From positions 1 to 11,372 of IMG/VR virus record IMGVR_UViG_2529293140_000004: a stretch of DNA of 11,372 nt; one strand, given 5' to 3'. This DNA comes from a virus. Lineage: Duplodnaviria; Heunggongvirae; Uroviricota; Caudoviricetes. Positions 1-11,372 of the stretch are shown here, piece after piece. Every line of letters begins with the position of its first letter. The first letter of the stretch is position 1. The translations under genes and the position numbers were made by a program. The notes beneath the pieces are model-generated. The model did not search any database. It was given only the letters and a program-made list of their open reading frames with translations, and was not told the origin of the DNA.

Positions 1-201
1 TTACCCATTGGCGCGGCTTAAGAGCTTATTTTTGAATTCACAATGGTCACGATATAACCATCTTGCTCGACCGTGGATAACTTTGGCTTTTGGCAGGTCT
101 CCGGACTTAATCCGGTCATAGATGAAGGTCTTACCGAAGCCAGTATCGGCCATGATGAATTTCAAATCAACCAGTGAATCAGGCTGTAGTTCGTGTTGCA
201 T
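1..201 (-). CDS. xis: Excisionase-like small DNA-binding protein (Xis/AlpA-type), 66 aa
   Basis: ORF-track 66 aa product (…LVDLKFIMADTGFGKTFIYDRIKSGDLPKAKVIHGRARW…) has the pattern of AlpA/Xis-type winged-helix excisionases; it is the last gene of the leftward operon, where lambdoid phages place xis upstream of int. ATG at 201..199, stop at 1..3 on the window edge. Confidence 0.6.
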   Translation of the reverse strand: MQHELQPDSLVDLKFIMADTGFGKTFIYDRIKSGDLPKAKVIHGRARWLYRDHCEFKNKLLSRANG

Positions 202-243
202 GAGTGCTATCTCCGAATAGGGAATCGAACCTGCAAATCAGGT

Positions 244-267
244 AATAAAAAACCGCCATCAGGCGGC
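244..267 (-). terminator. Putative intrinsic terminator (minus strand)
   Basis: Short GC stem ccgcc(253-257)/ggcgg(262-266) with 4-nt loop; on the minus strand it is followed by a T-tract (plus A-run 245-252). Overlaps the stop codon of the 55-aa ORF. Confidence 0.4.
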
Positions 268-426
268 TTGGTGTTCTTTCAGTTCTTCAATTCGAATATT
301 GGTTACGTCTGCATGTGCTATCTGCGCCCATATCATCCAGTGGTCATAGCAGTCGTTGATGTTCTCTGCTTCGATAACTCTGTTGAATGGTTCTCCATTC
401 CATTCACCTGTGACTCGGAAGTGCAT
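259..426 (-). CDS. Hypothetical small protein, 55 aa (MHFRVTGEWNGEPFNRVIEAENINDCYDHWMIWAQIAHADVTNIRIEELKEHQAA)
   Basis: Hand-translated minus-strand ORF below the 60-aa track threshold; ATG at 426..424 preceded by GGAG with 7-nt spacer; bracketed by two minus-strand terminator hairpins. Preferred over the antisense plus ORF 193..441. Confidence 0.45.
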   Translation of the reverse strand: MHFRVTGEWNGEPFNRVIEAENINDCYDHWMIWAQIAHADVTNIRIEELKEHQAA

Positions 427-436
427 TTATCATCTC

Positions 437-464
437 CATAAAACAAAACTCGCCGTAGCGAGTT
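437..464 (-). terminator. Putative intrinsic terminator (minus strand)
   Basis: 7-bp stem aactcgc(447-453)/gcgagtt(458-464), loop cgta; on the minus strand the hairpin is followed by TTGTTTTAT (plus 437-446). Confidence 0.45.
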
Positions 465-514
465 CAGATAAAAGAAATCCCCGCGAGTGCGAGGATAGTT
501 ACTTGTTCATATTA

Positions 515-796
515 TTAATCGTCAATGTATTTTGAGCATTGTGGGCAATCATCGATCCCACAATACGATTCATATGCATCCTTTATTGCGTCGCGGGCTT
601 CAGTAAGAGTATTGAATAAGTTGCAGCTATTATCTTTTTGATATAGGTAAGTTCCTAATTTATAAGCAGAAGAAGCATCATTTCCGCTGTCTAAAATTAC
701 ATCGTTATGGATTCTGCACCTTGCAAGAACTCCTGATCCCATAAGGGTCTGCATAGCCCATTGCTCTTGATCTTCACACAAATCATGAATGCTCAT
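515..796 (-). CDS. Hypothetical protein, 93 aa, Cys-containing C-terminus (…YCGIDDCPQCSKYIDD)
   Basis: ORF track 515..814, which begins at GTG; trimmed to the ATG at 796..794, which has a strong SD (AGAGAGGTG, 5-nt spacer). AT-rich gene with an AT-rich upstream region. Confidence 0.55.
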   Translation of the reverse strand: MSIHDLCEDQEQWAMQTLMGSGVLARCRIHNDVILDSGNDASSAYKLGTYLYQKDNSCNLFNTLTEARDAIKDAYESYCGIDDCPQCSKYIDD

Positions 797-910
797 TTCA
801 ACACCTCTCTTCACGTTTCACACACGTTAAGATTAACAGTGTTATTACATGCTTTGGAAGATTTATTTTATAAAAACTCTTTTAATACAAATAGATATAA
901 TAGTTCACTA

Positions 911-1483
911 TTATAGCTCCTTTAATCGAGGCGGTTCTGGTAGAGGCATCCAGTGGGTTACCTCTTTGAGATACAGGTCTTCGCCATCACCGTCATCCCA
1001 AGTGGGATTGCCATCATTAAACCAGTCGCCATATACGCCGACCTGAGTGTTGGGGATGTTTGGTGGGTAGTTGTTTTTAAAGTCAGCTGCTAACACATAG
1101 CATTGTCGCTCTCCCATTTCTGGCATTCGCTCACTACAGCTTATCCAACCATCCGGAGTTACCGGAGAGTTGCCATTTACATCGAAGTTTGGCTCTGCGT
1201 CCTGAACCAGGAGGATGTAACCATTCTTGGCAGTATCAAGTTCTAACGCCTCGGTGACGGTACCGAAATAGCGATTACCTAAATCCGCATCACAAGTGCT
1301 TACATCAATGGAAACCTCCATGCCTTCGATTAATTCTGGCAAGTTGTAAGTTTGGCTTACAAGTTCGGCTTCCAGCGATGCCAGTGCAATCCGTGCCACT
1401 TCCATTTGTTCGCCACGAGTAAGTCCATTATCAAGCGGCTTTTTAATGAATAATTCGATACGCTCTTTGGTAATAGTGGTCAT
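911..1483 (-). CDS. Phage protein, 190 aa, DUF551-like C-terminal region (tentative)
   Basis: ORF track; SD AAGGTGA 7 nt before ATG 1483. C-terminal W/P-rich motif (…THWMPLPEPP) recalls DUF551 phage proteins; family assignment is from memory only. Confidence 0.55.
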   Translation of the reverse strand: MTTITKERIELFIKKPLDNGLTRGEQMEVARIALASLEAELVSQTYNLPELIEGMEVSIDVSTCDADLGNRYFGTVTEALELDTAKNGYILLVQDAEPNFDVNGNSPVTPDGWISCSERMPEMGERQCYVLAADFKNNYPPNIPNTQVGVYGDWFNDGNPTWDDGDGEDLYLKEVTHWMPLPEPPRLKEL

Positions 1484-1485
1484 AG

Positions 1486-1677
1486 CTATTTCACCTTAAT
1501 CTCAACATTTCGCAGCTTTAGCTCTACTGGCAGGTCTGACTTTCCTGTTAATGCTAATGCGAGATTTTCAGGAGTAATGAGAGCAGTTATTGTTTTCCCC
1601 ATTGCCAGACGAATAATCATTCGTATCTCGCGATCGTCACATGCTCCCGGTCGAACAATTGAGATTTGTCCGTTCAT
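1486..1677 (-). CDS. Hypothetical protein, 63 aa
   Basis: ORF track 1486..1719 trimmed to ATG 1677..1675: SD AAGGAG 6 nt upstream, and this ATG sits 1 nt after the TGA stop (1681..1679) of the upstream gene (TGAgATG coupling). Confidence 0.5.
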   Translation of the reverse strand: MNGQISIVRPGACDDREIRMIIRLAMGKTITALITPENLALALTGKSDLPVELKLRNVEIKVK

Positions 1678-1678
1678 C

Positions 1679-2395
1679 TCACTCTCCTTTGATGCGAATG
1701 CCAGCGGCGCGGATTGCATCGATGACTTCAGAAACTTTGTATGCCATTACCGTTTGGTAATCATCGTGAAAAGCTGTTCGATGAAGCATGCTGCTACGTT
1801 CTGGGAGCGATATTTCCCGTGCTTCCAGTTCTGCAATGCGCTTCTCTGCGGCTTCCAGCTTCTCGCGCATATCGTCAACGTACTCGACAAGAGAACCGCC
1901 AGCAGGAATTTCGCACTCCTCGACCAGTTGGAAGTAGATATCAGCTGCGGCCCGTGTGTTGCTATGCCTAGCGTCGCCCATCTCACCTTCACGAAGAGCA
2001 TCGCGTTCGGCGGTAAGATTGGCTATTTTGCTGTCTTTGCCTTCTAGCTCAACGCGCAGCCTCCCAACAGTAAGCGCAATATCCTCGTTCTCCTGGTCGC
2101 GGCGTTTGATGTATTGCTGGTTTCTTTCCCGTTCATCCAGCAGTGCCAGCACGGTAGCCGGATTGGCTGCAGCGATGAATTCAGCATTGGCCTGCTGTTC
2201 CATTTGGAAATCTTCATCGAAACCGCTTTCTGGATGCGCTCCTTCAATTCTGCAAATGGGAATATATCCAGCAGCCTCGCGATGAATTAGTGCATCATCA
2301 CCATCAAAGCTGCCATCTCCATATTCGATCGACCACTCACCACACGTTGCTTTCTCTGCCTTGTCACGCAGTGCCTGATAGTCAATCTCGCTCAC
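1679..2395 (-). CDS. Ead/Ea22-like phage protein, 238 aa (tentative family call)
   Basis: ORF track; start codon is GTG at 2395..2393 preceded by a strong SD AAGGAGG (6-nt spacer). N-terminal MSEIDYQALRDKAEKATCGEW resembles the Ea22-like family of lambdoid b-region proteins (from memory). Confidence 0.6.
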   Translation of the reverse strand: MSEIDYQALRDKAEKATCGEWSIEYGDGSFDGDDALIHREAAGYIPICRIEGAHPESGFDEDFQMEQQANAEFIAAANPATVLALLDERERNQQYIKRRDQENEDIALTVGRLRVELEGKDSKIANLTAERDALREGEMGDARHSNTRAAADIYFQLVEECEIPAGGSLVEYVDDMREKLEAAEKRIAELEAREISLPERSSMLHRTAFHDDYQTVMAYKVSEVIDAIRAAGIRIKGE

Positions 2396-2546
2396 TGGCT
2401 GCCTCCTTTGCTGTGCTTTCTAACTTCTGAGTGGTTGTATCAAACTCAAACAACTTAACCACGTCATCAAACAGGACATAATCGCCATCAGAATCTTCAG
2501 TCATGTCAGCGCCACAATCCTGACCGAACGAGTCACAACCATCCAT
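2382..2546 (-). CDS. Hypothetical acidic small protein, 54 aa (MDGCDSFGQDCGADMTEDSDGDYVLFDDVVKLFEFDTTTQKLESTAKEAASERD)
   Basis: Hand-translated; ATG 2546..2544 lies 6 nt after the stop of the upstream 48-aa ORF; no clear SD; 3' end overlaps the start of the Ea22-like gene by 14 nt. Confidence 0.3.
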   Translation of the reverse strand: MDGCDSFGQDCGADMTEDSDGDYVLFDDVVKLFEFDTTTQKLESTAKEAASERD

Positions 2547-2552
2547 ATCAAG

Positions 2553-2699
2553 CTAGTATCGCTTGAGTTTTGCGATATTTGATAAATTCAGCGCCAGTAC
2601 AGCCAGGTCATAAACCTCTTCGGCGGTATACCCTGCGCCATGCCCATACATTTCAATGCGGGATATGATTTCTTCTACCCGTTGTTTTGTGATCGTCAT
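2553..2699 (-). CDS. Hypothetical small protein, 48 aa (MTITKQRVEEIISRIEMYGHGAGYTAEEVYDLAVLALNLSNIAKLKRY)
   Basis: Hand-translated; strong SD GGGAGGTGA 6 nt before ATG 2699; its ATG overlaps the TGA of the upstream ORF (ATGA). Confidence 0.4.
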   Translation of the reverse strand: MTITKQRVEEIISRIEMYGHGAGYTAEEVYDLAVLALNLSNIAKLKRY

Positions 2700-2809
2700 T
2701 TTTGCTCACCTCCCTGTTCTTCCAGAAAAATACGCATAGCCTCAAGCATCTCTTCTGTGTCATACGGTGACAGCTTGTCACGTAGAGGCCGCTTGTCGAT
2801 ATTGCTCAT
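2696..2809 (-). CDS. Hypothetical small protein, 37 aa (MSNIDKRPLRDKLSPYDTEEMLEAMRIFLEEQGGEQK)
   Basis: Hand-translated; ATGA overlaps at both ends (with the 61-aa ORF upstream and the 48-aa ORF downstream); SD GAGGT 4 nt upstream. Confidence 0.35.
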   Translation of the reverse strand: MSNIDKRPLRDKLSPYDTEEMLEAMRIFLEEQGGEQK

Positions 2810-2991
2810 TGGAACCTCGCATGATTCTTCCAGCGATTCTGTGCTGCGCTGTTTTTGAATTGATGCCCTTCACGGCTAACACCACCTAGCGTGAAGAGAA
2901 CCATGCGTCGATTGCTTACATTCAGCCATTGGCGCGGGTAGCAGTTTTTCAGAGCGCGAAGAACGATGATTTTGGCTTTACGGTTTTTCAT
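2806..2991 (-). CDS. Hypothetical basic small protein, 61 aa
   Basis: ORF track; ATG 2991..2989 overlaps the TGA (2990..2988) of the upstream gene; SD AAGGAG 7 nt upstream. Confidence 0.5.
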   Translation of the reverse strand: MKNRKAKIIVLRALKNCYPRQWLNVSNRRMVLFTLGGVSREGHQFKNSAAQNRWKNHARFQ

Positions 2992-3428
2992 GACTGCACT
3001 CCTTTGCGAATCTTCTGCGCTAAATCATCGAGCATGTTTGCGTAATTGAACTGGTTTACGTCATCAAGGGCGCAAGCTGCCATATCTACACCCTGCGCTC
3101 GAACTTCAGCTAGGAAAGCGTCGGTGGCTGGGGTTTCAGTAACATCATCTTCCCATTCGCTAAACTCCTCACGACAAAAGTCATTAAATTCCTTCTCAGA
3201 TTGCTTAAGTGAGGTATTTTCAGCAGCCATCTTCGCGCATTTAGCCTCAAGGTTATCAATCGTGATTCCAGCAGAACGACACTCCCGCAACGCCGTTTCC
3301 AGTTTTGATTCAAGTTCACCGAACTTACGGACAAGATATTCAGCGTTTGTTTCGTTAACCTTTAAATCACTTGGGATGCATTTACCTTTCAGAAATCCAT
3401 CCATCTCAATTAGTGTCATTTGTTTCAT
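2988..3428 (-). CDS. Hypothetical protein, about 146 aa
   Basis: ORF track 2988..3446 begins at GTG without an SD; the ATG at 3428..3426 overlaps the TGA of the upstream 54-aa ORF (ATGA), so 3428 is taken as the start. Confidence 0.5.
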
Positions 3429-3589
3429 TTCTTCCCACTCCGCCACATAGCATTCAGATATTTGTTGTCATTAACAGAACCGAAACTATTTCTCTTAAGT
3501 AATTCCTCTCTCGATGGCATTGGCTTTACGCGTTGGCGAATAATCATTTCTGCCGGAAGAATGCCGGGATTGTATGCAAGTCCTCTCAT
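3425..3589 (-). CDS. Hypothetical small protein, 54 aa ([15 protein letters not shown]…)
   Basis: ORF track 3425..3742 overlaps the better-supported 98-aa ORF by 143 nt in another frame; trimmed to ATG 3589..3587, which lies after that gene's TAA stop and has SD AAGGA with 7-nt spacer. Confidence 0.45.
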
Positions 3590-3599
3590 TGTAAATTCC

Positions 3600-3896
3600 T
3601 TAGTCATTACTGATAGCGCCATAGCGTGAGCGGTAATTACGCAGGCGCGGGTCGATATATTCAGGGAAGTGGGTATATGTGGCTTTGCGGAACGGTCGGA
3701 TTGATGTCTGGTAAATTCGCTCGCGTTCTTCTTTCTCTGCAAGCCATATACAATGGCGAAATTCCTTTTCCTCTTTCGTTTCCTGCGGTAGCGACATTAT
3801 CCGGTTGTAGTTTTTCCTGAATTTATCCAGCACCTCCGATACGGAATTGCCGGAACAGCGGCGCGCGTCATCCGCACCATACAGAGGCGCTGGCAT
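3600..3896 (-). CDS. Hypothetical protein, 98 aa
   Basis: ORF track; strong SD AGGAG 6 nt before ATG 3896; immediately downstream of ssb. Confidence 0.6.
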
Positions 3897-3909
3897 GATT
3901 TTCTCCTGA

Positions 3910-4416
3910 TTAAATTGCGTGAATAGCGTGACGAGGGAAGGGGAGAGTTACTGGTGCAAAGGGTATATCGTCGTCAAAATCCATCGGAGGTTCGTTGTGT
4001 TGTGCTGGTGATGATTGCTGCTGTGGCTTCTGTGATTGCCTGCTGGCTGCTTGTTGTTTGCTGTCGCCAATGCCGCCAAGCATTTGCATCACGCCATTAA
4101 TTCCGACATGAACCTCGGTTGTGTAACGGTCTTGTCCTGACTGGTCTTTCCACTTTCTGGTTCTCAGCATTCCCTCGAAATAAATCTGATCACCTTTTTT
4201 CACATACTGCCCCACGACCTCAGCCAGTTTCCCGGATACAGCAACACGATGCCATTCAGTCAATTCCTTTTGCTCGCCAGTATTTTTATCTCGCCATTGT
4301 TCTGACGTGGCTATTGTCAGGTTAGCGAACGCTGTACCTGATGGTGAGTATCGAACTTCCGGATCTTGTCCTACCCGACCAAGGATAATCACCTTATTTA
4401 CGCCTCTGCTTGCCAT
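3910..4416 (-). CDS. ssb: Single-stranded DNA-binding protein (SSB), 168 aa, with a 15-aa extension beyond the canonical acidic tip
   Basis: ORF-track product has the SSB OB-fold N-terminus ([44 protein letters not shown]…) and the acidic motif [11 protein letters not shown], followed unusually by [15 protein letters not shown] before the stop. Confidence 0.9.
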
Positions 4417-5124
4417 TTATGCCGCCTGTTTTAGTTCGTTAACTCTGATGTTCATTACCTGAACGCATTTAGCCTGCGCCTCCTCGTTGCCAGCCATTAA
4501 TTGCCAGTCACGCTGATAACGCTCGATGAGTTTTTTCTTGTCAGTTTCTGTTGACGCATAATCGCTGAAGTCTTTCAGGATTTGCTCGCAGTCAACCGAT
4601 GGAGATTTCTGGTTGGTATTTTCTGGTGATGGTTTGTTATCTGATGCTGGGATTGCCCATCCCGGCAGCGATGGAGGGAGCCAGTAAAATCCTGTTCCAT
4701 CCTTGAGTTTTGCCCTGTGCCATCCCTGCTTTTTATCGAGAGATGTTTGTGCGAAACCTTCCTCAAGGTTATACAGATACCGACCGATTCCCCACTGAAC
4801 GGCAGCGCGCTTCATTGCACCGGAACGACCACCTTTTACGGCTTCTACCTGCGTGTTTTCAGCAGCATCCCATTTGGTTACCCATTCGGAATCAATCCTG
4901 ATTGATATGCCGCATTCAACGCCTCCGTTGTTGGGAATATCGCGGTATTCATTGCGCCATCCCGCTTTGCCGCAAACATCGTCCAGGCGTTTCATGATTG
5001 CCCTGTTCGTGACATAAGCCAGCACCATAGCCCACACCTTTCCATCGCGTGTTTTACCGCTTTGCTGTATTCGCCATTCGATATCTTCAGGGCTGAATGG
5101 CTCATCGAATTTATTCAAATCCAT
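4417..5124 (-). CDS. Rad52-family (Sak-like) single-strand annealing protein, 235 aa
   Basis: ORF-track product contains …LDDVCGKAGWRNEY… and …EAVKGGRSGAMKRAAVQWGIGRYLY…, matching the two conserved blocks of the Rad52 annealing domain (from memory of eukaryotic Rad52 and phage Sak). Directly abuts ssb (TAA then ATG). Confidence 0.7.
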   Translation of the reverse strand: MDLNKFDEPFSPEDIEWRIQQSGKTRDGKVWAMVLAYVTNRAIMKRLDDVCGKAGWRNEYRDIPNNGGVECGISIRIDSEWVTKWDAAENTQVEAVKGGRSGAMKRAAVQWGIGRYLYNLEEGFAQTSLDKKQGWHRAKLKDGTGFYWLPPSLPGWAIPASDNKPSPENTNQKSPSVDCEQILKDFSDYASTETDKKKLIERYQRDWQLMAGNEEAQAKCVQVMNIRVNELKQAA

Positions 5125-5132
5125 AATTCACC

Positions 5133-5303
5133 TCAGAATGGACATGGCCCAAGGAAATAACGCTGATTTAATACTTCTACTCGGGACAAATTAAGGCATA
5201 CCCGCATTCCTTCGCGGTCACCATTATGGCGATACCAGAGAGCTTTCTGCGTGTACATGCGTCTCTGTAACTTGCTCTCCTTCACTGTGGTTGCAAGTGA
5301 CAT
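5133..5303 (-). CDS. Hypothetical small ORF, 56 aa (ambiguous)
   Basis: Hand-translated; strong SD AAGGAG 6 nt before ATG 5303; stop lies in the SD of the Rad52-like gene. Overlaps the next candidate ORF (5224..5382) by 80 nt in another frame, so only one may be real, or the two may be halves of one frameshifted gene. Confidence 0.3.
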   Translation of the reverse strand: MSLATTVKESKLQRRMYTQKALWYRHNGDREGMRVCLNLSRVEVLNQRYFLGPCPF

Positions 5304-5382
5304 GAATATCTCCTTCGTTACCGATTAATTCTTTCATCTGACGAATGAATTCTTCGTCTGACCAGTTATTTGTAAAACTCAT
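5224..5382 (-). CDS. Hypothetical small ORF, 52 aa (MSFTNNWSDEEFIRQMKELIGNEGDIH…) (ambiguous)
   Basis: Hand-translated; ATG 5382..5380 overlaps the TGA of the kil-like ORF (ATGA). Overlaps ORF 5133..5303. Confidence 0.3.
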   Translation of the reverse strand: MSFTNNWSDEEFIRQMKELIGNEGDIHVTCNHSEGEQVTETHVHAESSLVSP

Positions 5383-5531
5383 TTCCTACGATACCACGGA
5401 AGGTTGATAGCTGATTTCATCGCTTTATTTGCTTCAAGCCACATTTTTGAATCACCAATAAATCTGGCTATTACTGCTTTGTTCTGTGCTGCACGAAGCA
5501 TCTGGTGATTGAAGGCTATTTCATTGCGCAT
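5379..5531 (-). CDS. kil: Kil-like small protein, 50 aa (MRNEIAFNHQMLRAAQNKAVIARFIGDSKMWLEANKAMKSAINLPWYRRK)
   Basis: Hand-translated ORF below the track threshold; SD GAGGT 6 nt before ATG 5531. The motif IARFIGDSKMW resembles my recollection of lambda Kil (IATFIGDEKMF); sits immediately downstream of cIII as in lambda. Confidence 0.5.
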   Translation of the reverse strand: MRNEIAFNHQMLRAAQNKAVIARFIGDSKMWLEANKAMKSAINLPWYRRK

Positions 5532-5647
5532 AATAAGACCTCAACTCTTTTCCATCCGTCACGTAATTTACGGGTGATTCGTTCAAGTAAAGATTCATTT
5601 AGTTGGAAGGCACCCATGCGAGCGCCTCCCGCGATTGCGTAAATCAT
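5516..5647 (-). CDS. cIII: cIII-like protease inhibitor, 43 aa (MIYAIAGGARMGAFQLNESLLERITRKLRDGWKRVEVLLCAMK)
   Basis: Hand-translated codon by codon; SD AAGGA 7 nt before ATG 5647. The core ESLLERITRKLRDGWKR is identical to the conserved central helix of lambda CIII as I recall it. Confidence 0.8.
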   Translation of the reverse strand: MIYAIAGGARMGAFQLNESLLERITRKLRDGWKRVEVLLCAMK

Positions 5648-5784
5648 GGGTGGTTCCTTATGTTGGTTTTATTAGTAGGTTATTTTTGTTGCGAATACTT
5701 CGCCTTTTACGATGGCTGTTATGATATTTTTAGCAACATCTTCTGATGCACCAACCTTGATAAGGTCAGCAAGTATTTTGTTAT

Positions 5785-6639
5785 TTACTTCTTTCCGGTG
5801 AGCTTTATCCTTTGCTCTACGCTCTTCTTCGTCCTTGGTTCTTTTTCTTCTGCTATTCTGGCTTGCTCTTTTGCTTCAGCCTCGCGCCTGATTCGTTCAG
5901 CCTCCTCCTGTGCTTTTCGGCGTTCTGCTTCAATTGCCGCCTGCTTTTCTCTTTCAGCTCGTTCTGTTGCCTCTTTTGCTTCGCGCTGTGCTCGTTGCTC
6001 GGCTTCAATGCGTTCACGCTCTGCACGTTCCGCTGCTGCCTTAGCTTCTGCTTCTCGCCTTGCTGCCGCTTCAATTTCGGCTTTTGCCTTTGCTTCGGCT
6101 TCTGATCTGGCTTTCTCTTCAGCTTCTCTTTTTAAGCGTTCTTCATGCTCTCGCTTTTCCTGCTCCGCTTTGAGTCTTGCCTCTTCTCTTTGGCGGTCAA
6201 ATTCGCGATCCATCAAAATCGCTATTTCATGGTCAGACTCAATTTGCTTTGCGAGAGCTTCAGCTGCTGCCTTAGCTTCTTCTTCAGCTTTAATCCGCGC
6301 CTGTTCCTCTTCATAATCAGTAAGAGGCTGGCGTGCCTTGGCTTTCAGTTCATCAAGGCGGTCGCGCACTGTCTTGCGGTTGGCATCAATTAGCTTTGGA
6401 ATTTCCTTCAGTTCAGCAACAAGGTCTTTGCCAAGACCATCGAGATATGTTTTCGTCTGCGCAACTTTATACGCCAGAGAAGCGATCTCCTTTCTGCCCT
6501 TTGCCGTTGTGATATCAGGCACAAAGGACATAACTTCACGTTCAACCTTTTGGAGGATTTCTTCAATCTGGTCGGCAGACTGAAATACAGTCATTGCATT
6601 TGCTTTTTCAATAACAACTAAATCTGTTACTTCACTCAT
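5785..6639 (-). CDS. Coiled-coil phage protein, 284 aa, globular N-terminal third plus long E/R/A/K-rich low-complexity region
   Basis: ORF track; strong SD AAGGAGG before ATG 6639. Residues from about 100 onward are almost entirely E, R, A, K, Q. Sits upstream of cIII/kil and the recombination genes. Confidence 0.6.
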   Translation of the reverse strand: MSEVTDLVVIEKANAMTVFQSADQIEEILQKVEREVMSFVPDITTAKGRKEIASLAYKVAQTKTYLDGLGKDLVAELKEIPKLIDANRKTVRDRLDELKAKARQPLTDYEEEQARIKAEEEAKAAAEALAKQIESDHEIAILMDREFDRQREEARLKAEQEKREHEERLKREAEEKARSEAEAKAKAEIEAAARREAEAKAAAERAERERIEAEQRAQREAKEATERAEREKQAAIEAERRKAQEEAERIRREAEAKEQARIAEEKEPRTKKSVEQRIKLTGKK

Positions 6640-6674
6640 ATATCCTCCTTAATTTGTATGCGTCAAATCCGCGC

Positions 6675-6986
6675 TCAGGCTGCTGAGGTTTCTTCTTTCA
6701 GGCTTTCGATATATTTACGTGGGTCGTCGTAACATTGGCATTCGCTGTACCAATCTACCCAGCGATCCGTAAGCCCCATCTCTGATAAATCTTCATCAGT
6801 AATGCTCTCATCCCACATCTCAAGGCCGTTAGCATTGCAGTAGTCAGGCTTGATATTGTTGTCATACTGAAAGGCATCATAATCAGCCAGTGCATCCATC
6901 AGGCGAACACCCTCTTCAACACTTGCCACTTCTACAATGAACGGCTTCATAGGTACTTGCGGGATATGCCAGACACGTAATTTCAT
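6675..6986 (-). CDS. Hypothetical protein, 103 aa (MKLRVWHIPQVPMKPFIVEV…)
   Basis: ORF track 6675..7040 trimmed: ATG 6986..6984 has a strong SD (GGAGG), and the 5' extension would run through a terminator hairpin at 6999..7027. Confidence 0.55.
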   Translation of the reverse strand: MKLRVWHIPQVPMKPFIVEVASVEEGVRLMDALADYDAFQYDNNIKPDYCNANGLEMWDESITDEDLSEMGLTDRWVDWYSECQCYDDPRKYIESLKEETSAA

Positions 6987-6998
6987 ATATCCTCCATC

Positions 6999-7027
6999 AA
7001 AAAAATTGCCCTCACACTGGAGGGCAA
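6999..7027 (-). terminator. Putative intrinsic terminator (minus strand) between the accessory block and the recombination block
   Basis: 8-bp GC-rich stem ttgccctc(7006-7013)/gagggcaa(7020-7027) with 6-nt loop; on the minus strand it is followed by T7 (plus A-run 6999-7005), then SD and ATG of the 103-aa gene. Confidence 0.5.
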
Positions 7028-7087
7028 AGAAGATTTCCAATAATCAGAACAAGTCGGCTCCTGTTTAGTTACGAGCGACATTGCTCC

Positions 7088-7115
7088 GTGTATTCACTCG
7101 TTGGAATGAATACAC
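7088..7115. repeat. Perfect 9-bp inverted repeat gtgtattca N10 tgaatacac
   Basis: Read directly from the sequence in the intergenic region between the 62-aa ORF and the terminator; no adjacent T-tract, so more likely a protein-binding site or RNA hairpin than a terminator. Confidence 0.4.
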
Positions 7116-7120
7116 AGTGC

Positions 7121-7309
7121 TTATTCGTCATGCATTTCAGGTAATTCTTCGTATTCGACGCCCCATACGTTTTCACACCAACTAACTCGCTCATATCTTT
7201 TACAAAAATCAGACCACATAACTTGTGTTCCATCATGGTTTGTTATTATTTCTGTAATATCACCAACACTAACAAAACTGGTATTAGAAGCAGTTATTTT
7301 TACTTTCAT
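7121..7309 (-). CDS. Hypothetical small protein, 62 aa
   Basis: ORF track; SD GGAG 7 nt before ATG 7309; start overlaps the stop of the upstream gene (TAATG). Confidence 0.5.
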   Translation of the reverse strand: MKVKITASNTSFVSVGDITEIITNHDGTQVMWSDFCKRYERVSWCENVWGVEYEELPEMHDE

Positions 7310-7656
7310 TACTTATCTCCAAGAGCTTTTCTGATTGCTGCAAGACCTTTATTAACAGCTCCATACCATTCTGGATATGTTGTCGTTGTTCTATTTTTGG
7401 TTTGCTTAAGTAGTAACTGAAGTGCTTCGAGAAGGTCAGGCGCTGCCGATATTAGATTGGCATCTTCAATGCATTGAACTTCCTCACAGATTGCAATATA
7501 CGAACGCCAGCCTGTGCCATTTTCAAGAGAGTCTGCCTGGATGATTTTAATCTCATCGCCATCCATCATTATTTCCCACTTACCTTTAGTACCTTTAAAT
7601 TCCATGTTATCCTCTGTTGTTTGTGCCAAAAATAAAGGCCGAATATTCTGCTTCAT
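7309..7656 (-). CDS. Hypothetical protein, 115 aa
   Basis: ORF track; ATG 7656..7654 overlaps the TGA of the upstream ORF (ATGA). Alternative start at 7605 (MEFKGTKGKWEI…) has a better SD (GAGGA). Confidence 0.5.
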   Translation of the reverse strand: MKQNIRPLFLAQTTEDNMEFKGTKGKWEIMMDGDEIKIIQADSLENGTGWRSYIAICEEVQCIEDANLISAAPDLLEALQLLLKQTKNRTTTTYPEWYGAVNKGLAAIRKALGDK

Positions 7657-7853
7657 TCCTCAAACTTAATCTCTGCTATTTCCCGGTCACCATCGCAAAA
7701 CAGGTAAGATTCAGGGAACTGGTTTATAAATGAAATTATTCTTTCAATTTTAATTAGCGAATATTTCTGCTCTAATGGGTTATGCGGCTTAAACGAAGCA
7801 CAGTCCAGAATCGCAGAATTGTATAAGATCCATTTGTGCATTTTTACCACCAC
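7653..7853 (-). CDS. Hypothetical small protein, 62-66 aa (weak call)
   Basis: ORF track; start is GTG at 7853 or ATG at 7841 (SD GGTGG); either overlaps the 3' end of the PP-loop enzyme gene by 50 nt or more, so the call is uncertain. Confidence 0.3.
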   Translation of the reverse strand: MVVKMHKWILYNSAILDCASFKPHNPLEQKYSLIKIERIISFINQFPESYLFCDGDREIAEIKFEE

Positions 7854-8646
7854 TAGGTGTTAGTGGTGCCTCAGATAGTGGAACACCATATTTAGTAAGC
7901 CACAAATGAGGCCACTTCATTTGTATCTCTTTTTCATGCTGACATGCTCTTTCAAAATCAGATGGGACGTTATTTTTCATATAAAGCCACAGATCATCAT
8001 CTCTGTTAGGGCACATCCAGCAAAGCGAGGCAGGTGGTGTAGGAAGACCATAATCCTCGACACATTGAATTGCCATCTGTTTAGTCATTAGCATTTCAAT
8101 AAGTGGATAGCGCCTCTGCCACTTGCCAGTTGGGTATTTCGCTCTTCGTTTAGCCTCTTCAATGCTTATCCCCATCCAACTATCCACTCCTCTTGCTGTA
8201 AGATACTTCTCTCCATATCTTTCATTTAAAAATCTCTGAATAACTTCAGTTTTCCACTTTATAGAACAAAATGCTGGTTGCTTTCCAGCGCACATTCCTT
8301 TTGAATCCCTTCCCTCGTATTCTGTGAAATATCCAGGTAGAGGAACGTCTGGATCAGGCCCATCAATGTCGTAGGTAGCAAATCTACTTTTAGGAACAAT
8401 CAGGTAATCAACACCCATATCTTCACAAATAGGAGCTATATATTTTTTCTGATATTCAAATACATTACTTGCCTCACGTTCTGTATCTGACATAACGATA
8501 ATGTCAGGCTTTGGAAGAACGCCAGCATGTACTAAGCAGATTATTGCGTTACTTTGAGTACCACCACCGGAAGAAATAACATTTAGTCTTTCTGGATTAT
8601 GCTTGAATTCTCTTCTTGGTATGAATTTACTTGTAAATCCTGGCAT
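7789..8646 (-). CDS. PP-loop ATP pyrophosphatase superfamily protein (PAPS reductase/DndC-like), 285 aa
   Basis: ORF-track product carries an N-terminal PP-loop (SSGGGTQS) and C-terminal cysteine pairs (CWMCP and CDSGLC); strong SD AAGGAG 5 nt before ATG 8646. AT-rich by eye compared with neighbouring genes. Confidence 0.75.
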   Translation of the reverse strand: MPGFTSKFIPRREFKHNPERLNVISSGGGTQSNAIICLVHAGVLPKPDIIVMSDTEREASNVFEYQKKYIAPICEDMGVDYLIVPKSRFATYDIDGPDPDVPLPGYFTEYEGRDSKGMCAGKQPAFCSIKWKTEVIQRFLNERYGEKYLTARGVDSWMGISIEEAKRRAKYPTGKWQRRYPLIEMLMTKQMAIQCVEDYGLPTPPASLCWMCPNRDDDLWLYMKNNVPSDFERACQHEKEIQMKWPHLWLTKYGVPLSEAPLTPSGGKNAQMDLIQFCDSGLCFV

Positions 8647-8647
8647 G

Positions 8648-8779
8648 TTATCTCCTTGTCTTTACAATTTGATAATCCTGACCTGTTTGTTTAGCGTATT
8701 GCTCAGCCTGTTCTTTTGTTTTGAAAGAGTTTCCGCAAACCCATCTACCGCAACTTCTGTATTGAATTTGGTAGCTCAT
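8648..8779 (-). CDS. Hypothetical small protein, 43 aa (MSYQIQYRSCGRWVCGNSFKTKEQAEQYAKQTGQDYQIVKTRR)
   Basis: Hand-translated ORF below the track threshold; SD GAGGGGTGA upstream of ATG 8779; its TAA stop sits inside the SD of the PP-loop enzyme gene. Confidence 0.4.
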   Translation of the reverse strand: MSYQIQYRSCGRWVCGNSFKTKEQAEQYAKQTGQDYQIVKTRR

Positions 8780-8838
8780 ATCTCACCCCTCATACAGTGG
8801 TTTGCTGCCTAATTTCATTTTCTGGCGACCAACACAAG

Positions 8839-9222
8839 TCACCTTGCTGTCAGTTGTTTTGATTTCCTGTAGCCTGCCGCGTAAAGAGCTACATTTGGAA
8901 GACATACACCAGTTTCTGGTTGCCTATGCCCAAACTCATTCGCGTACACAATGGCCGCTCTCTCCAGATTGCGTCTGTATTCTTTCTGTTGCCAGATCAC
9001 GTCCTGTGCCATGAACTTAATTGGCTTAGCGTCTTCTATGCGCTCAGGCGTTTCGTGAGTACCTTTAGCCTGAATCTGCGCTCTGCTTAGAGTAGGGCGG
9101 TGTAATACTTCTGAACTTATTGCTTCTTCGCGGGCCAGTACGCCGTTAGCTAATGCCTTTGCCTTTAAACGCTCACGACGACGAGAACGTGAATTGCCTT
9201 TGAACTGAGTTCTGCGTGTCAT
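8839..9222 (-). CDS. N: N-like transcription antitermination protein, 127 aa
   Basis: First gene downstream of pL/nutL; strong SD AGGAGGT before ATG 9222; N-terminal arginine-rich motif (KGNSRSRRRERLKAKALA) like the ARM of lambdoid N proteins; the upstream boxB is P22-type. Confidence 0.6.
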   Translation of the reverse strand: MTRRTQFKGNSRSRRRERLKAKALANGVLAREEAISSEVLHRPTLSRAQIQAKGTHETPERIEDAKPIKFMAQDVIWQQKEYRRNLERAAIVYANEFGHRQPETGVCLPNVALYAAGYRKSKQLTAR

Positions 9223-9387
9223 ATAGACCTCCTGATGAACTTTGGTGGTGTGGTAGGTGGGAGACCCATTTCGACCTGTTTCGGCCTACTTCAATTCGGC
9301 AATAGTCCCGCAGGCCTCGCCGCTTTACGTGCGACATATTCCCGTCCATGAACCCTTCACCACACCCCAAAGTTCACTTTGGTTATT

Positions 9388-9402
9388 GCGCTTTGTCAGC
9401 GC
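9388..9402 (-). promoter_or_regulatory. nutL boxB hairpin, P22-type (minus-strand GCGCTGACAAAGCGC)
   Basis: Exact match on the minus strand to the P22 boxB sequence as I recall it (5-bp GC stem, GACAA-containing loop), between pL and the N-like gene. No convincing boxA was found upstream of it. Confidence 0.5.
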
Positions 9403-9463
9403 CGTAGATTCATATTCGAATCGTTGTATATTCACCGCCCTGGTGAGTAGTGCGTCCTGCTGA

Positions 9464-9500
9464 TGTGTTTAGTATCACCGCCAGTGGTATTTATGTCAAC
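9464..9500 (-). promoter_or_regulatory. pL promoter (leftward): -35 TTGACA at plus 9494-9499, -10 GATACT at plus 9471-9476
   Basis: Minus-strand read GGTGTTGACATAAATACCACTGGCGGTGATACT matches lambda pL with the operators overlapping it. Confidence 0.75.
9473..9489. promoter_or_regulatory. Operator OL1 (TATCACCGCCAGTGGTA)
   Basis: Exact 17-bp match to lambda OL1 as recalled. Confidence 0.85.
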
Positions 9501-9513
9501 ACCGCCAGAGATA
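9497..9513. promoter_or_regulatory. Operator OL2 (CAACACCGCCAGAGATA)
   Basis: Exact 17-bp match to lambda OL2 as recalled; 7-bp AT-rich spacer from OL1. Confidence 0.85.
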
Positions 9514-9516
9514 ATT

Positions 9517-9533
9517 TATCACCGCAGATGGTT
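9517..9533. promoter_or_regulatory. Operator OL3 (TATCACCGCAGATGGTT)
   Basis: Exact 17-bp match to lambda OL3 as recalled. Confidence 0.85.
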
Positions 9534-9680
9534 ATCTGTATGTTTTTTATATAGATTTATTTTTTTGCAGGGGTGTGTGGCTTGGGAGGTGATCGAGAGA
9601 TCTGAATTGCGATGTTTAGTGAGTTGTATCTATTAATTTTCAAATAAATACAATTGGTTATGTGTTTTGGGGCGAACGTG

Positions 9681-9720
9681 AGGCAAAGAAAACCCGGCGC
9701 GGTGGCCGGGTTTATTTATT
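9681..9720. terminator. tIMM-like terminator (hairpin with U-rich flanks on both strands)
   Basis: Stem cccggc(9693-9698)/gccggg(9705-9710), 6-nt loop; T-rich runs on both sides (plus tttatttatt 9711-9720; minus TTTTCTTTG from plus 9681-9692). Lies just after the stop of the 216-aa gene, and resembles the lambda terminator that follows rexB. Confidence 0.6.
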
Positions 9721-10366
9721 GCTTAGGAGCTTGTTGTGATGACGATTGGTTAGTTGGAGCGCTCGTTAATGGTTGCTGTGTCGGTACCTGTATTATAATT
9801 GGAGCCGGGCTGGTTACTGATGGTGACTTGTCATTGCCGGAGATAATCCAACTTGAGGCTAACATCACGCCAGACAGAATCACAGTAACTAAAGTCAAGC
9901 CAACGGCCATCGCCCACTGAGTCGTTGTAAGTCCCGTTTTCAAACCGCCGATTTCACCTTTAATTTCAGCAATACCTCTCTCAATAGAAGAAAATTGCTG
10001 AGTATAATAGGTTTTAAAGTCAGCTGATTCGCGACGCATTTCCGCAGCAATAGACTCTACCTCTGATTTGTTTTGTGAAAGCTTTGCGTCAAGTTCTTCT
10101 CTGGACATTCCGCTCACGCTTACCTCCAGGGTATCACTCTTCATCGCTACATCTTCCTTACTTGGGCGCAAACCCGTTTCGTCCATGGCGTATGAAACTC
10201 TATTTGATACCTTAGCATCAATACCAATACTTTGGTACTGAGATGGATCCCCATAAGGAGAAACGGTTGTCGCTGCTAGGGTTGCACTAACTATAATACT
10301 TGGAAGAACTGATGATGTTGTTCCTGAGGTAGGTTGAACTGAAGAAACTGGCTTCAGTCTTTCCAT
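9716..10366 (-). CDS. Single-pass membrane protein, 216 aa: S/T-rich N-terminus, central coiled-coil, one TM helix, S/T/P/Q-rich C-terminal tail
   Basis: ORF track. Hydrophobic segment WAMAVGLTLVTVILSGVMLASSWII; charged helical region SREELDAKLSQNKSEVESIAAEMRRESADFK. Open frame of 74 codons upstream of an alternative start (M75, with SD AAGGAAG) argues that the long form is coding. Occupies the lambda rexB position. Confidence 0.6.
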   Translation of the reverse strand: MERLKPVSSVQPTSGTTSSVLPSIIVSATLAATTVSPYGDPSQYQSIGIDAKVSNRVSYAMDETGLRPSKEDVAMKSDTLEVSVSGMSREELDAKLSQNKSEVESIAAEMRRESADFKTYYTQQFSSIERGIAEIKGEIGGLKTGLTTTQWAMAVGLTLVTVILSGVMLASSWIISGNDKSPSVTSPAPIIIQVPTQQPLTSAPTNQSSSQQAPKQ

Positions 10367-10761
10367 AGCCCATTATCCCTGAGAGCTACCTGTAATGATT
10401 TTACTAATGCAACAGCTTGATCCGGGCTCATTGAGACTGACATGTTAGGGGTCAACTCAACTTTTACTTGGAAGCTATTATTTCCTTGCTCATCAGACTG
10501 CATGTGATGCTCAAATTCATGGCGGTAAAAAGTAATGATTGTTTCAGCACGATCAGGCGTAATAAGAACTGATGTGGCGGTCATGTGCTGAGGTATGATT
10601 TTAATAGTGTTATCTGACATAAGTATCCTTTTTGTTTCCTTAGTATTTTTTTGCATTGACATCAGAAATAGCGAATCCACAAGAGTATGAGTAAAGCTAA
10701 TCAGTTTAGTGATACGGTGACTATTAAAGTGGTAAACCACATCAAAGCTCGCAGAGTGCAT
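10354..10761 (-). CDS. Hypothetical soluble protein, 135 aa (alternative 88-aa form from ATG 10620)
   Basis: ORF track; overlaps the downstream 216-aa gene by 13 nt. ATG 10761 has no SD, whereas ATG 10620 (MSDNTIKIIPQ…) has a strong AAGGA SD, so the start is uncertain. Confidence 0.5.
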   Translation of the reverse strand: MHSASFDVVYHFNSHRITKLISFTHTLVDSLFLMSMQKNTKETKRILMSDNTIKIIPQHMTATSVLITPDRAETIITFYRHEFEHHMQSDEQGNNSFQVKVELTPNMSVSMSPDQAVALVKSLQVALRDNGLWKD

Positions 10762-10812
10762 ACCAGGCTGTCACACATGACAAAGTAACGAGGATGCCTG
10801 ATCTCATAGCGC

Positions 10813-10968
10813 TCAAAGAGACATGCCGATAATGGCATTAACCACGCATGACGCCATAAACACGCCGCCAACGATGAAGCTGGCTTGGTTCTTCCTGGTA
10901 GCGCCAAGAGTCAACAGAACCACTGAAAGGGCAAAAAAAGGTATCGCGATTATGCTGAACGTGTTCAT
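10813..10968 (-). CDS. Small two-TM membrane protein, 51 aa (MNTFSIIAIPFFALSVVLLTLGATRKNQASFIVGGVFMASCVVNAIIGMSL)
   Basis: Hand-translated codon by codon, below the track threshold; SD GAGGT 4 nt before ATG 10968; two hydrophobic helices separated by TRKNQ; first gene downstream of cI, same orientation. Confidence 0.4.
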   Translation of the reverse strand: MNTFSIIAIPFFALSVVLLTLGATRKNQASFIVGGVFMASCVVNAIIGMSL

Positions 10969-11045
10969 GTTGACCTCAACTTATTTCGATTCTCCATCAC
11001 CCTTAATCCGCCGCCCCATGTGTTTGTTGTGATCCGTTGCTGGCC

Positions 11046-11372
<327 letters not shown>

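Follow-up and report, generated by a model that had tools for sequence, protein, structure and literature searches.

The stretch of DNA analyzed here (IMG/VR record IMGVR_UViG_2529293140_000004, positions 1 to 11,372, the whole of which is called the window below) covers, on the minus strand, the early-left (pL) arm of a prophage that is lambdoid and HK97/P22-like. Between the antiterminator gene N and a terminator-like hairpin it carries an AT-rich block (7121-8779) with five open reading frames (ORFs), one of which (7789..8646, minus strand) encodes a 285-aa protein. According to profile comparisons, this protein is an SspD/DndC-type member of the PP-loop/PAPS (3'-phosphoadenosine 5'-phosphosulfate)-reductase superfamily, and it is neither CysH nor part of a standard Ssp or Dnd module. 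Its gene stands alone, its invariant cysteines may form a sulfur-handling site, and a phage homologue, PptA, shares a PDB entry with the cysteine desulfurase IscS of E. coli. With a confidence that falls somewhat short of even, we propose that the enzyme is an early-expressed, IscS-dependent sulfurtransferase serving counter-defence, with the element's own nucleic acid as the most likely substrate.

Among the PHROG families, the enzyme matches phrog_424, labelled 'PAPS reductase', along residues 11-284 (E 4.7e-35). In PADLOC it matches SspD, weakly (3.1e-7) and along residues 120-252 only; however weak in the single sequence, this match is reproduced by all 40 aligned members of the family (best 8e-21), and the plasmid homologues and PptA (see below) match SspD only. 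The DndC and BrxP profiles detect neither the enzyme (DndC at E<=1) nor any of the 40 members (E<=0.01). E. coli CysH, used as a control, matches BrxP at 4.9e-11 and SspD at only 0.006. Thus, the family is assigned to the SspD-like branch, and not to that of CysH. No Pfam or NCBIfam model matches the enzyme up to E 0.1-1, PF01507 included. Of the 40 members, five match PF01507 (none better than E 0.002), one matches PRK02090 (0.0014), and 22 match NCBIfam PRK08557, an archaeal 'hypothetical protein' (3.8e-5 or weaker), which is uninformative. The subfamily to which the enzyme belongs is very large and well defined, and scores above the cut-off of no Pfam or NCBIfam model.

Searching 1.84 billion representative sequences with the family profile yielded 7,276 relatives, of which 4,423 had E<=1e-10 and 1,782 had E<=1e-30; almost all are 240-300 aa long. 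When grouped at 50% identity, the subfamily forms more than 7,000 clusters. The 100 clusters obtained in a homology search come mostly from Enterobacterales, Orbaceae and Vibrio, and homologues are also present in Acidobacteriota, Planctomycetota and Verrucomicrobiota. Of 5426 complete E. coli genomes two contain the gene, and among 50,697 phage records there is nothing close to it (the best hit of a translated search has 43.8% identity), which agrees with its earlier characterization as an accessory, not a core lambdoid, gene.

The AlphaFold2 model of the enzyme (mean predicted local distance difference test score, pLDDT, 90.5) has the Rossmann-like alpha/beta/alpha fold of the adenine nucleotide alpha-hydrolase/PP-loop superfamily. 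This fold is common to guanosine monophosphate synthase, TilS, TtuA, LarE and PAPS reductase. A fold search in BFVD produced weak matches only, to phage entries labelled 'PAPS reductase', and in the PDB at E<=10 the family reaches neither adenosine 5'-phosphosulfate (APS) reductase nor TtuA by sequence.

The nucleotide-binding loop SSGGGTQS (residues 25-32; 8551..8574, minus strand) contains four residues, S25, G27, G29 and Q31, that are invariant in both alignments of the family, A1 and the more diverse A2. A preliminary description of this DNA regarded it as a canonical PP-loop, which holds for the superfamily fold and the DndC/SspD type; the motif itself is a variant of the PAPS-reductase type, since in the pattern S25-x-G27-x-G29-x-Q31-S/T an invariant Gln replaces the Asp of SGGxDS. 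In the hhalign alignment, SSGGGTQS falls on SSSFGIQA of CysH and DTE on the DTG of CysH. The invariant set, traced down to plasmid homologues at 26-30% identity, consists of the loop residues, E58, C127, K132, R168, P181, L182, C209, C212, P213, C278 and C283; D54 is shared by 90% of the sequences or more.

All five cysteines thus belong to the invariant set. Cys127 lies in the motif FCSxKWK (8266..8268, minus strand) and is retained in both alignments, including these plasmid homologues. C209 and C212, followed by P213, form the motif CWMCP (residues 209-213; 8008..8022, minus strand), in a region modelled with pLDDT >90. The last two, C278 and C283, bound the motif CDSGLC (residues 278-283; 7798..7815, minus strand); the protein ends in FCDSGLCFV, the family consensus being C-[DS]-[ST]-G-x-C, and the ECGLH motif of CysH is absent from this C-terminus. 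Residues 269-282 have pLDDT below 50, so that C278 lies inside and C283 just beyond the low-confidence segment. The order C...CxxC, together with a cysteine-bearing mobile C-terminus, resembles that of APS reductases with an iron-sulfur (Fe-S) cluster. We infer that C127, C209 and C212 may form an Fe-S or sulfur-handling site, with C127 as the first ligand, and that C278/C283 may be a mobile pair accepting persulfide. The suggestion that the four C-terminal cysteines build an Fe-S site is unlikely to hold in that form, since two of the four lie in or at the edge of the low-confidence tail and the invariant C127 had been missed.

By sequence, the family connects to one solved structure only, chain C of PDB entry 21fy, named PptA (E 0.011 with profile A1 and 4.8e-9 with A2). 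The alignment of the family profile with the full PptA sequence by hhalign has a probability of 97.3% and E 1.8e-11, at about 18% identity. The PptA sequence is found, at 100% identity, as a hypothetical protein in the T7-like Autographiviridae Vibrio phage vB_VhaP_VH-5, where its gene directly follows the phage RNA polymerase gene (MN497414.1, 5713-6465 of locus L128). Its cysteines C92 (in CTTQLK), C173xxC176 and C237xxxC241 match the layout of C127, C209, C212, C278 and C283; in the alignment C92 falls on C127 and the C173xxC176 pair on C209/C212. A PDB search with wild-type E. coli IscS found its sequence in exactly two entries, 1p3w and 21fy, and hence the latter contains both PptA and IscS. 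The literature search found no paper describing PptA.

The shared entry offers an explanation for the lack of a desulfurase gene beside the enzyme, in agreement with the earlier remark that none of the neighbors is a recognizable cysteine desulfurase. It also parallels the SspA-SspD interaction, as SspD binds the cysteine desulfurase SspA, and DndA or IscS has a role in assembling the cluster of DndC (PMC7188994). A partnership of the window enzyme with IscS is a prediction transferred from this homologue.

The preliminary description gave the enzyme four small partner ORFs, here called o43, o66, o115 and o62 in the order of transcription. Judging by DNA comparisons, two modules with different distributions, approximately 7613/7647-8800 and 7040-7646, make up the block. 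The DNA of positions 7000-7646, carrying o62 and o115, is 96-97% identical to that of phages mEp043 and APC_JM3.2, both of which lack the enzyme, and in E. coli XH2172 the same two genes come after a gene for an 'Nmad5 family putative nucleotide modification protein'. Hence, two unrelated, putatively nucleic-acid-modifying genes alternate at one position, upstream of the same pair of small genes. Conversely, E. coli JNE082640 and MB06231 have the cassette of approximately 7613-8800 (o43, enzyme, o66) but neither o115 nor o62. A tblastn search of 82 loci with the four small ORFs found o43 in L001, L003-L008 and L012 only, o66 is absent from most of the loci, and loci whose enzyme is still 74-84% identical already lack them, L012 being the exception.

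The same picture emerges from the neighborhoods of more distant homologues. All-against-all clustering of neighbors across 80 viral loci found no conserved neighbor family, and phmmer clustering of 46 loci dereplicated at 70% identity found no family common to more than three of them. The recurring theme is a general one, namely phage replication, recombination and early genes (encoding SSB (which binds single-stranded DNA), DnaB, RecT, DNA methylases, HNH proteins and integrase). Since the modules are separable and no neighbor family is conserved, the enzyme is considered to be stand-alone, and the operon with four partners is rejected. Comparison of the longest family members with Pfam revealed no informative domain fusions; the matches were limited to a zinc ribbon and, below threshold, Ead/Ea22. 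The long ORFs of high-GC loci proved to be calling artefacts.

In other mobile elements, homologues lie at sites of genes that function upon entry of DNA into a new cell. A tblastn search of plasmids identified 172 records with full-length homologues at approximately 25-35% identity, 104 of them from Agrobacterium. In pTi-SAKURA and in a Mesorhizobium conjugative plasmid an ArdC anti-restriction gene precedes the homologue, its stop overlapping with the start of the latter. These ArdC-coupled homologues (pTi-SAKURA, locus L117, 6066-7930; Mesorhizobium, locus L118, 6072-7861) are 25-27% identical to the enzyme and keep all five cysteines. In replicons of Phaeobacter, Sphingopyxis and Streptomyces the homologue adjoins a gene of the ParB family, and in two of the three an SSB gene lies at a distance of a few genes. 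In an element from Deinococcus its place is among early genes, with those for a cytosine methylase and a primase nearby, and in the D3-like Pseudomonas phage BUCT566 it belongs to the early-left operon, between recombination genes and int/xis. The BUCT566 homologue is 40% identical, and beyond the integrase gene this phage has an annotated gene for the anti-CRISPR protein AcrF2 (locus L131, 4498-5238 and 9617-9732).

The proposed function can be described as the following series of steps. The gene would be transcribed from pL directly after N and before the first terminator and, because of this position, its product would appear very early. The enzyme would dock on the host IscS and take persulfide sulfur onto Cys278/Cys283 of its mobile C-terminus, as suggested by the fact that the PptA entry also contains IscS and by a tail that is invariant and mostly of low confidence in the model. 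The nucleotide loop (S25, G27, G29, Q31 and the DT motif) would, judging by the fold, bind adenosine triphosphate (ATP), and adenylation would activate a phosphate or carbonyl of the substrate, to which sulfur could be handed over at the site of Cys127, Cys209 and Cys212, probably with an Fe-S cluster. The likeliest substrate would be the element's own nucleic acid, phosphorothioation of the DNA backbone being the first candidate, and as a result incoming DNA would escape phosphorothioate (PT)-dependent or nuclease-based host restriction. The four small ORFs would not be needed, and the host IscS would be the only required partner.

An anti-restriction role, proposed in the preliminary description from the type of enzyme and the position of its gene, is made plausible by the homologues adjacent to ArdC and ParB genes and by published work on other phage proteins. 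A two-gene vibriophage region that encodes a fusion of a PAPS domain with Dam confers anti-Dnd activity (Piel et al., bioRxiv 10.1101/2021.05.05.442762), and phage PAPS reductases regulated by Aca proteins have been proposed as anti-defence genes (PMC13551039).

Several observations weigh against this proposal. The main difficulty is that known PT synthesis depends on a P-loop ATPase, namely DndD, SspC or BrxC, and on a DNA-recognizing partner, DndE or SspB (PMC12914056, PMC12707154), and neither an ATPase nor a DNA-recognition or nicking partner is encoded near the enzyme or its homologues in the 80 viral and 46 dereplicated loci. The Gln that takes the place of Asp of the ATP-pyrophosphatase PP-loops, as in CysH, means that the use of ATP is not assured, and the median isoelectric point of the family, 6.6, is atypical for a nucleic-acid binder. 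Furthermore, binding of IscS is carried over from a homologue at the low identity given above, the PptA-IscS complex of 21fy may be either productive or inhibitory, and the Fe-S triad of C127, C209 and C212 is likewise a prediction, as is the choice of substrate.

The most far-reaching form of the proposal is a minimal, single-protein nucleic-acid thiolase, which with the host IscS only puts a phosphorothioate or a thio-base on incoming phage or plasmid DNA. We consider this form unlikely. If true, it would amount to a portable 'self-marking' of mobile elements against PT-sensing and other restriction systems, and many genes reported from viromes as 'cysH/PAPS reductase' auxiliary metabolic genes (AMGs) would be counter-defence genes.

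Two other explanations also involve the host IscS. The enzyme could be an RNA thiolase in the manner of TtuA, TtcA or NcsA, transferring IscS-derived sulfur onto host or phage tRNA for protection against anticodon nucleases or for tuning of translation, which seems unlikely to us. A comparably low probability is given to a blocker or decoy, in which catalysis would be secondary and the protein would sequester IscS or mimic SspD/DndC, starving defences that depend on PT or Fe-S clusters or reprogramming the traffic of sulfur. The Dnd and Ssp systems of E. coli do rely on IscS (PMC12707154), PptA and IscS share an entry, and the gene is stand-alone and, to judge by its position, expressed early, all of which would suit a decoy. 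However, across more than 70% divergence there is no change in the nucleotide loop, the DT motif, K132, R168 or any of the five cysteines, and such invariance argues for an active enzyme; moreover, restriction modules are not disarmed by blocking modification alone.

The usual reading of phage 'PAPS reductase' genes is that of an AMG (PMC13369170), that is, a true CysH-like PAPS or APS reductase that enables infected cells or lysogens to assimilate more sulfate by reduction. For the present family it is very unlikely. The profile evidence on both sides of the comparison speaks against it, the enzyme having no PF01507 or NCBIfam match (with only marginal PF01507 matches among the members) and CysH itself grouping with BrxP, as do the missing ECGLH motif, the DNA-entry and anti-restriction contexts, which include conjugative plasmids and a T7-like Autographiviridae phage, and a homologue that shares its PDB entry with IscS, which is no partner of CysH. 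Least probable of all, in our opinion, is a prophage-encoded defence, also put forward in the preliminary description, that would be expressed in the lysogen and would modify host DNA or otherwise exclude superinfecting phages. Prophage morons are often defensive, and both the neighboring gp17 and the sieB region of lambda deal with superinfection. Against this stand the location of the gene inside the early pL operon, where no separate promoter-like site was found upstream of it on the minus strand, the occurrence of PptA in a T7-like Autographiviridae phage and of other homologues in plasmid entry regions, and the lack of a restriction or effector partner nearby in the 46 dereplicated loci.

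On the minus strand of the window, from the right end, there follow a gene for a cI-type repressor, two ORFs without assigned function, N, the AT-rich block, the terminator-like hairpin, a gp17-type gene, a gene for a charged 284-aa protein, and genes for a Rad52/Erf-type protein and SSB. The cargo slot containing the enzyme is bounded upstream by N (8839-9222, minus strand; PF25694, 1.7e-15; phrog_271, 3.8e-38). It is closed by an intrinsic terminator-like hairpin with a T-run (6997..7027, minus strand; hairpin 7027-7006), which has an 8-bp stem with 5 GC pairs followed by TTTTTTT and is homologous to an annotated putative terminator of HK97. Beyond it, the downstream boundary is the gp17-type gene of superinfection-exclusion escape (6675..6986, minus strand; PF17420, 2.7e-55). 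In the program-made list the latter ORF spans 6675-7040, and a start at TTG 7040 would read through the terminator hairpin; since this listed ORF matches the Pfam family only from residue 19 onwards, translation probably begins downstream of the terminator, at ATG 6986.

The content of this slot varies. In HK97 it is occupied by the unrelated gp45, in XH2172 by the Nmad5 gene (sibling prophage, locus L002, NZ_CP116900.1, 3522-4667; cf. window positions 7121-7656), and mEp043 lacks the enzyme, which bears out the idea of a variable cargo slot after N. In lambda and P22 the gene for Ral, an early counter-restriction protein, lies directly downstream of N in the pL operon. The five ORFs, the motifs SSGGGTQS, CWMCP and CDSGLC, N and the terminator were all found where the preliminary description had placed them, and the block is indeed AT-richer: positions 7121-8779 have a GC content of 38.7% compared to 45.8% in the remainder of the window, the lowest value among all 1659-nt sliding windows (mean 44.9%, standard deviation 2.4%).

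The small ORFs, all on the minus strand, differ in how well they are defined. The first one, o43 (8648..8779, 43 aa; phrog_15891, 4.7e-5), is preceded by the ribosome-binding site GAGGGG and is translationally coupled to the enzyme gene, the junction consisting of TAA, one base and ATG, with the AAGGAG of the enzyme inside o43, six bases upstream. As a comparison with L007 (83% nucleotide identity) gives 16 synonymous and 2 non-synonymous changes, o43 is, by its pattern of substitution, a real gene restricted to the closest relatives. Its product has two cysteines (CGRWVC) and a sub-threshold match to the Pfam family NDUS4 (E 4.4e-4, 20.9 bits versus a cut-off of 31.9), which is probably due to chance. 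The ORF o66 (7653..7853, about 66 aa) overlaps the 3' end of the enzyme gene and starts with GTG. It must overlap, because no start codon is available downstream of the enzyme stop, and those available imply an overlap of 53-65 nt. Over the last 44 codons the frame stays open in relatives at 72-83% nucleotide identity and is moderately conserved, with 13 synonymous and 10 non-synonymous changes relative to L007, 12 and 14 relative to L012, and no stops. Thus, o66 is probably a real gene, poorly defined and with an uncertain start.

The two remaining ORFs form the independent module. The ORF o115 (7309..7656, 115 aa) matches phrog_1273 from residue 17 onwards, and its homologue in mEp043, gp46, has 98 aa; for these reasons its start is most likely ATG 7605, which would give a protein of 98 aa. 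With this start, the ATGA 'coupling' of o66 and o115 is probably not real. Hence the tight coupling of the ORFs, as described previously, applies to o43/enzyme and to o115/o62, where the stop and start overlap in TAATG, and not to o66/o115. The last ORF, o62 (7121..7309, 62 aa), belongs to phrog_10407. Partnership of the four with the enzyme finds no support in their distribution, as o115/o62 and the enzyme each occur without the other and o43/o66 accompany only some of the closest relatives.

Elsewhere in the window, the 284-aa protein (5785-6639, minus strand; phrog_1376) is extremely charged, rich in Glu, Ala, Lys and Arg, and labelled 'TolA' in relatives; owing to its gene, the AT skew is strong (-0.75) and long but spurious ORFs arise on the other strand. 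The two ORFs between cI and N (9716-10366, phrog_5820, and 10354-10761, phrog_26809, both on the minus strand) occupy the interval that in lambda contains rexAB, and are possibly morons expressed in the lysogen.

Genes for phage 'PAPS reductases' are very common, and virome studies routinely read them as sulfur metabolism. In a catalogue of phages from the gut of the honey bee, a 'PAPS reductase' AMG was linked to land use, the predicted hosts including Gilliamella (PMC13369170). A homologue 65% identical to the enzyme is present in a Gilliamella genome, and this AMG may represent the SspD-like family described here rather than sulfate assimilation. Among Orbaceae of the insect gut in general, homologues are 59-73% identical (Gilliamella sp., L093; Orbus, P0012; Zophobihabitans, P0023/L088). 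If the counter-defence reading is true, ecological interpretations of this 'AMG' need revision, and mobile elements have a new way of exploiting host sulfur trafficking. A lambdoid prophage with E. coli relatives carrying the gene provides an E. coli handle on a widespread and probably mis-annotated family.

Parts of this picture are already known, namely the phage 'PAPS reductases' of phrog_424, the anti-Dnd PAPS-Dam region, the Aca-regulated PAPS reductases, and the structure of PptA in an entry with IscS. Among the known systems, CysH (PF01507) differs from the enzyme in domain match, ECGLH motif and profile branch, and the enzyme, unlike CysH, is found in the entry contexts of mobile elements. 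DndC and BrxP, the PT-modification proteins of Dnd and of BREX type 4, belong to the same superfamily and presumably also transfer sulfur, but the enzyme is much smaller, has no DUF4007 or extra domains, and lacks DndD/E or BrxC/Z/L neighbors. SspD, an ATP pyrophosphatase with a PAPS-reductase domain from the SspABCD system of DNA phosphorothioation, is the only defence-system profile matched by all members of the family. It is normally encoded in an operon with SspB (the DUF4007 nickase), SspC (the ATPase) and usually SspA and SspE or SspFGH, whereas the neighboring ORFs of the window have no PADLOC matches and no SspA, SspB, SspC or SspE is encoded near the enzyme, which resides on a mobile element and not in a defence island. 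The earlier statement that this is not a standard Dnd or Ssp module, there being no DndD/E or SspB/C nearby, is therefore upheld. Ral of lambda and P22 has the slot and the theme of early counter-restriction in common with the enzyme, with no relation in sequence or fold and with an unrelated mechanism.

The remaining two proteins are encoded by vibriophages. The p0018 protein of Vibrio crassostreae phage 44E38.1 (Piel et al.) is similar to the enzyme in having a PAPS-reductase-type domain in a variable anti-defence position, and as a phage PAPS-domain protein it is the sole one with a published phenotype, directed against Dnd (bioRxiv 10.1101/2021.05.05.442762). However, it is a 479-aa fusion with a Dam methylase that needs or travels with a second gene, and since tblastn with the enzyme did not recover it at E<=1e-5, it belongs to a different subfamily. 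PptA of VH-5 differs from the enzyme in its loop (SCGAPS compared to SGGGTQS) and in its origin from a T7-like vibriophage and not from a lambdoid prophage, while both are phage-encoded, stand-alone proteins of 250-285 aa from the SspD-like branch, with the same cysteine layout and with genes among the early or middle ones.

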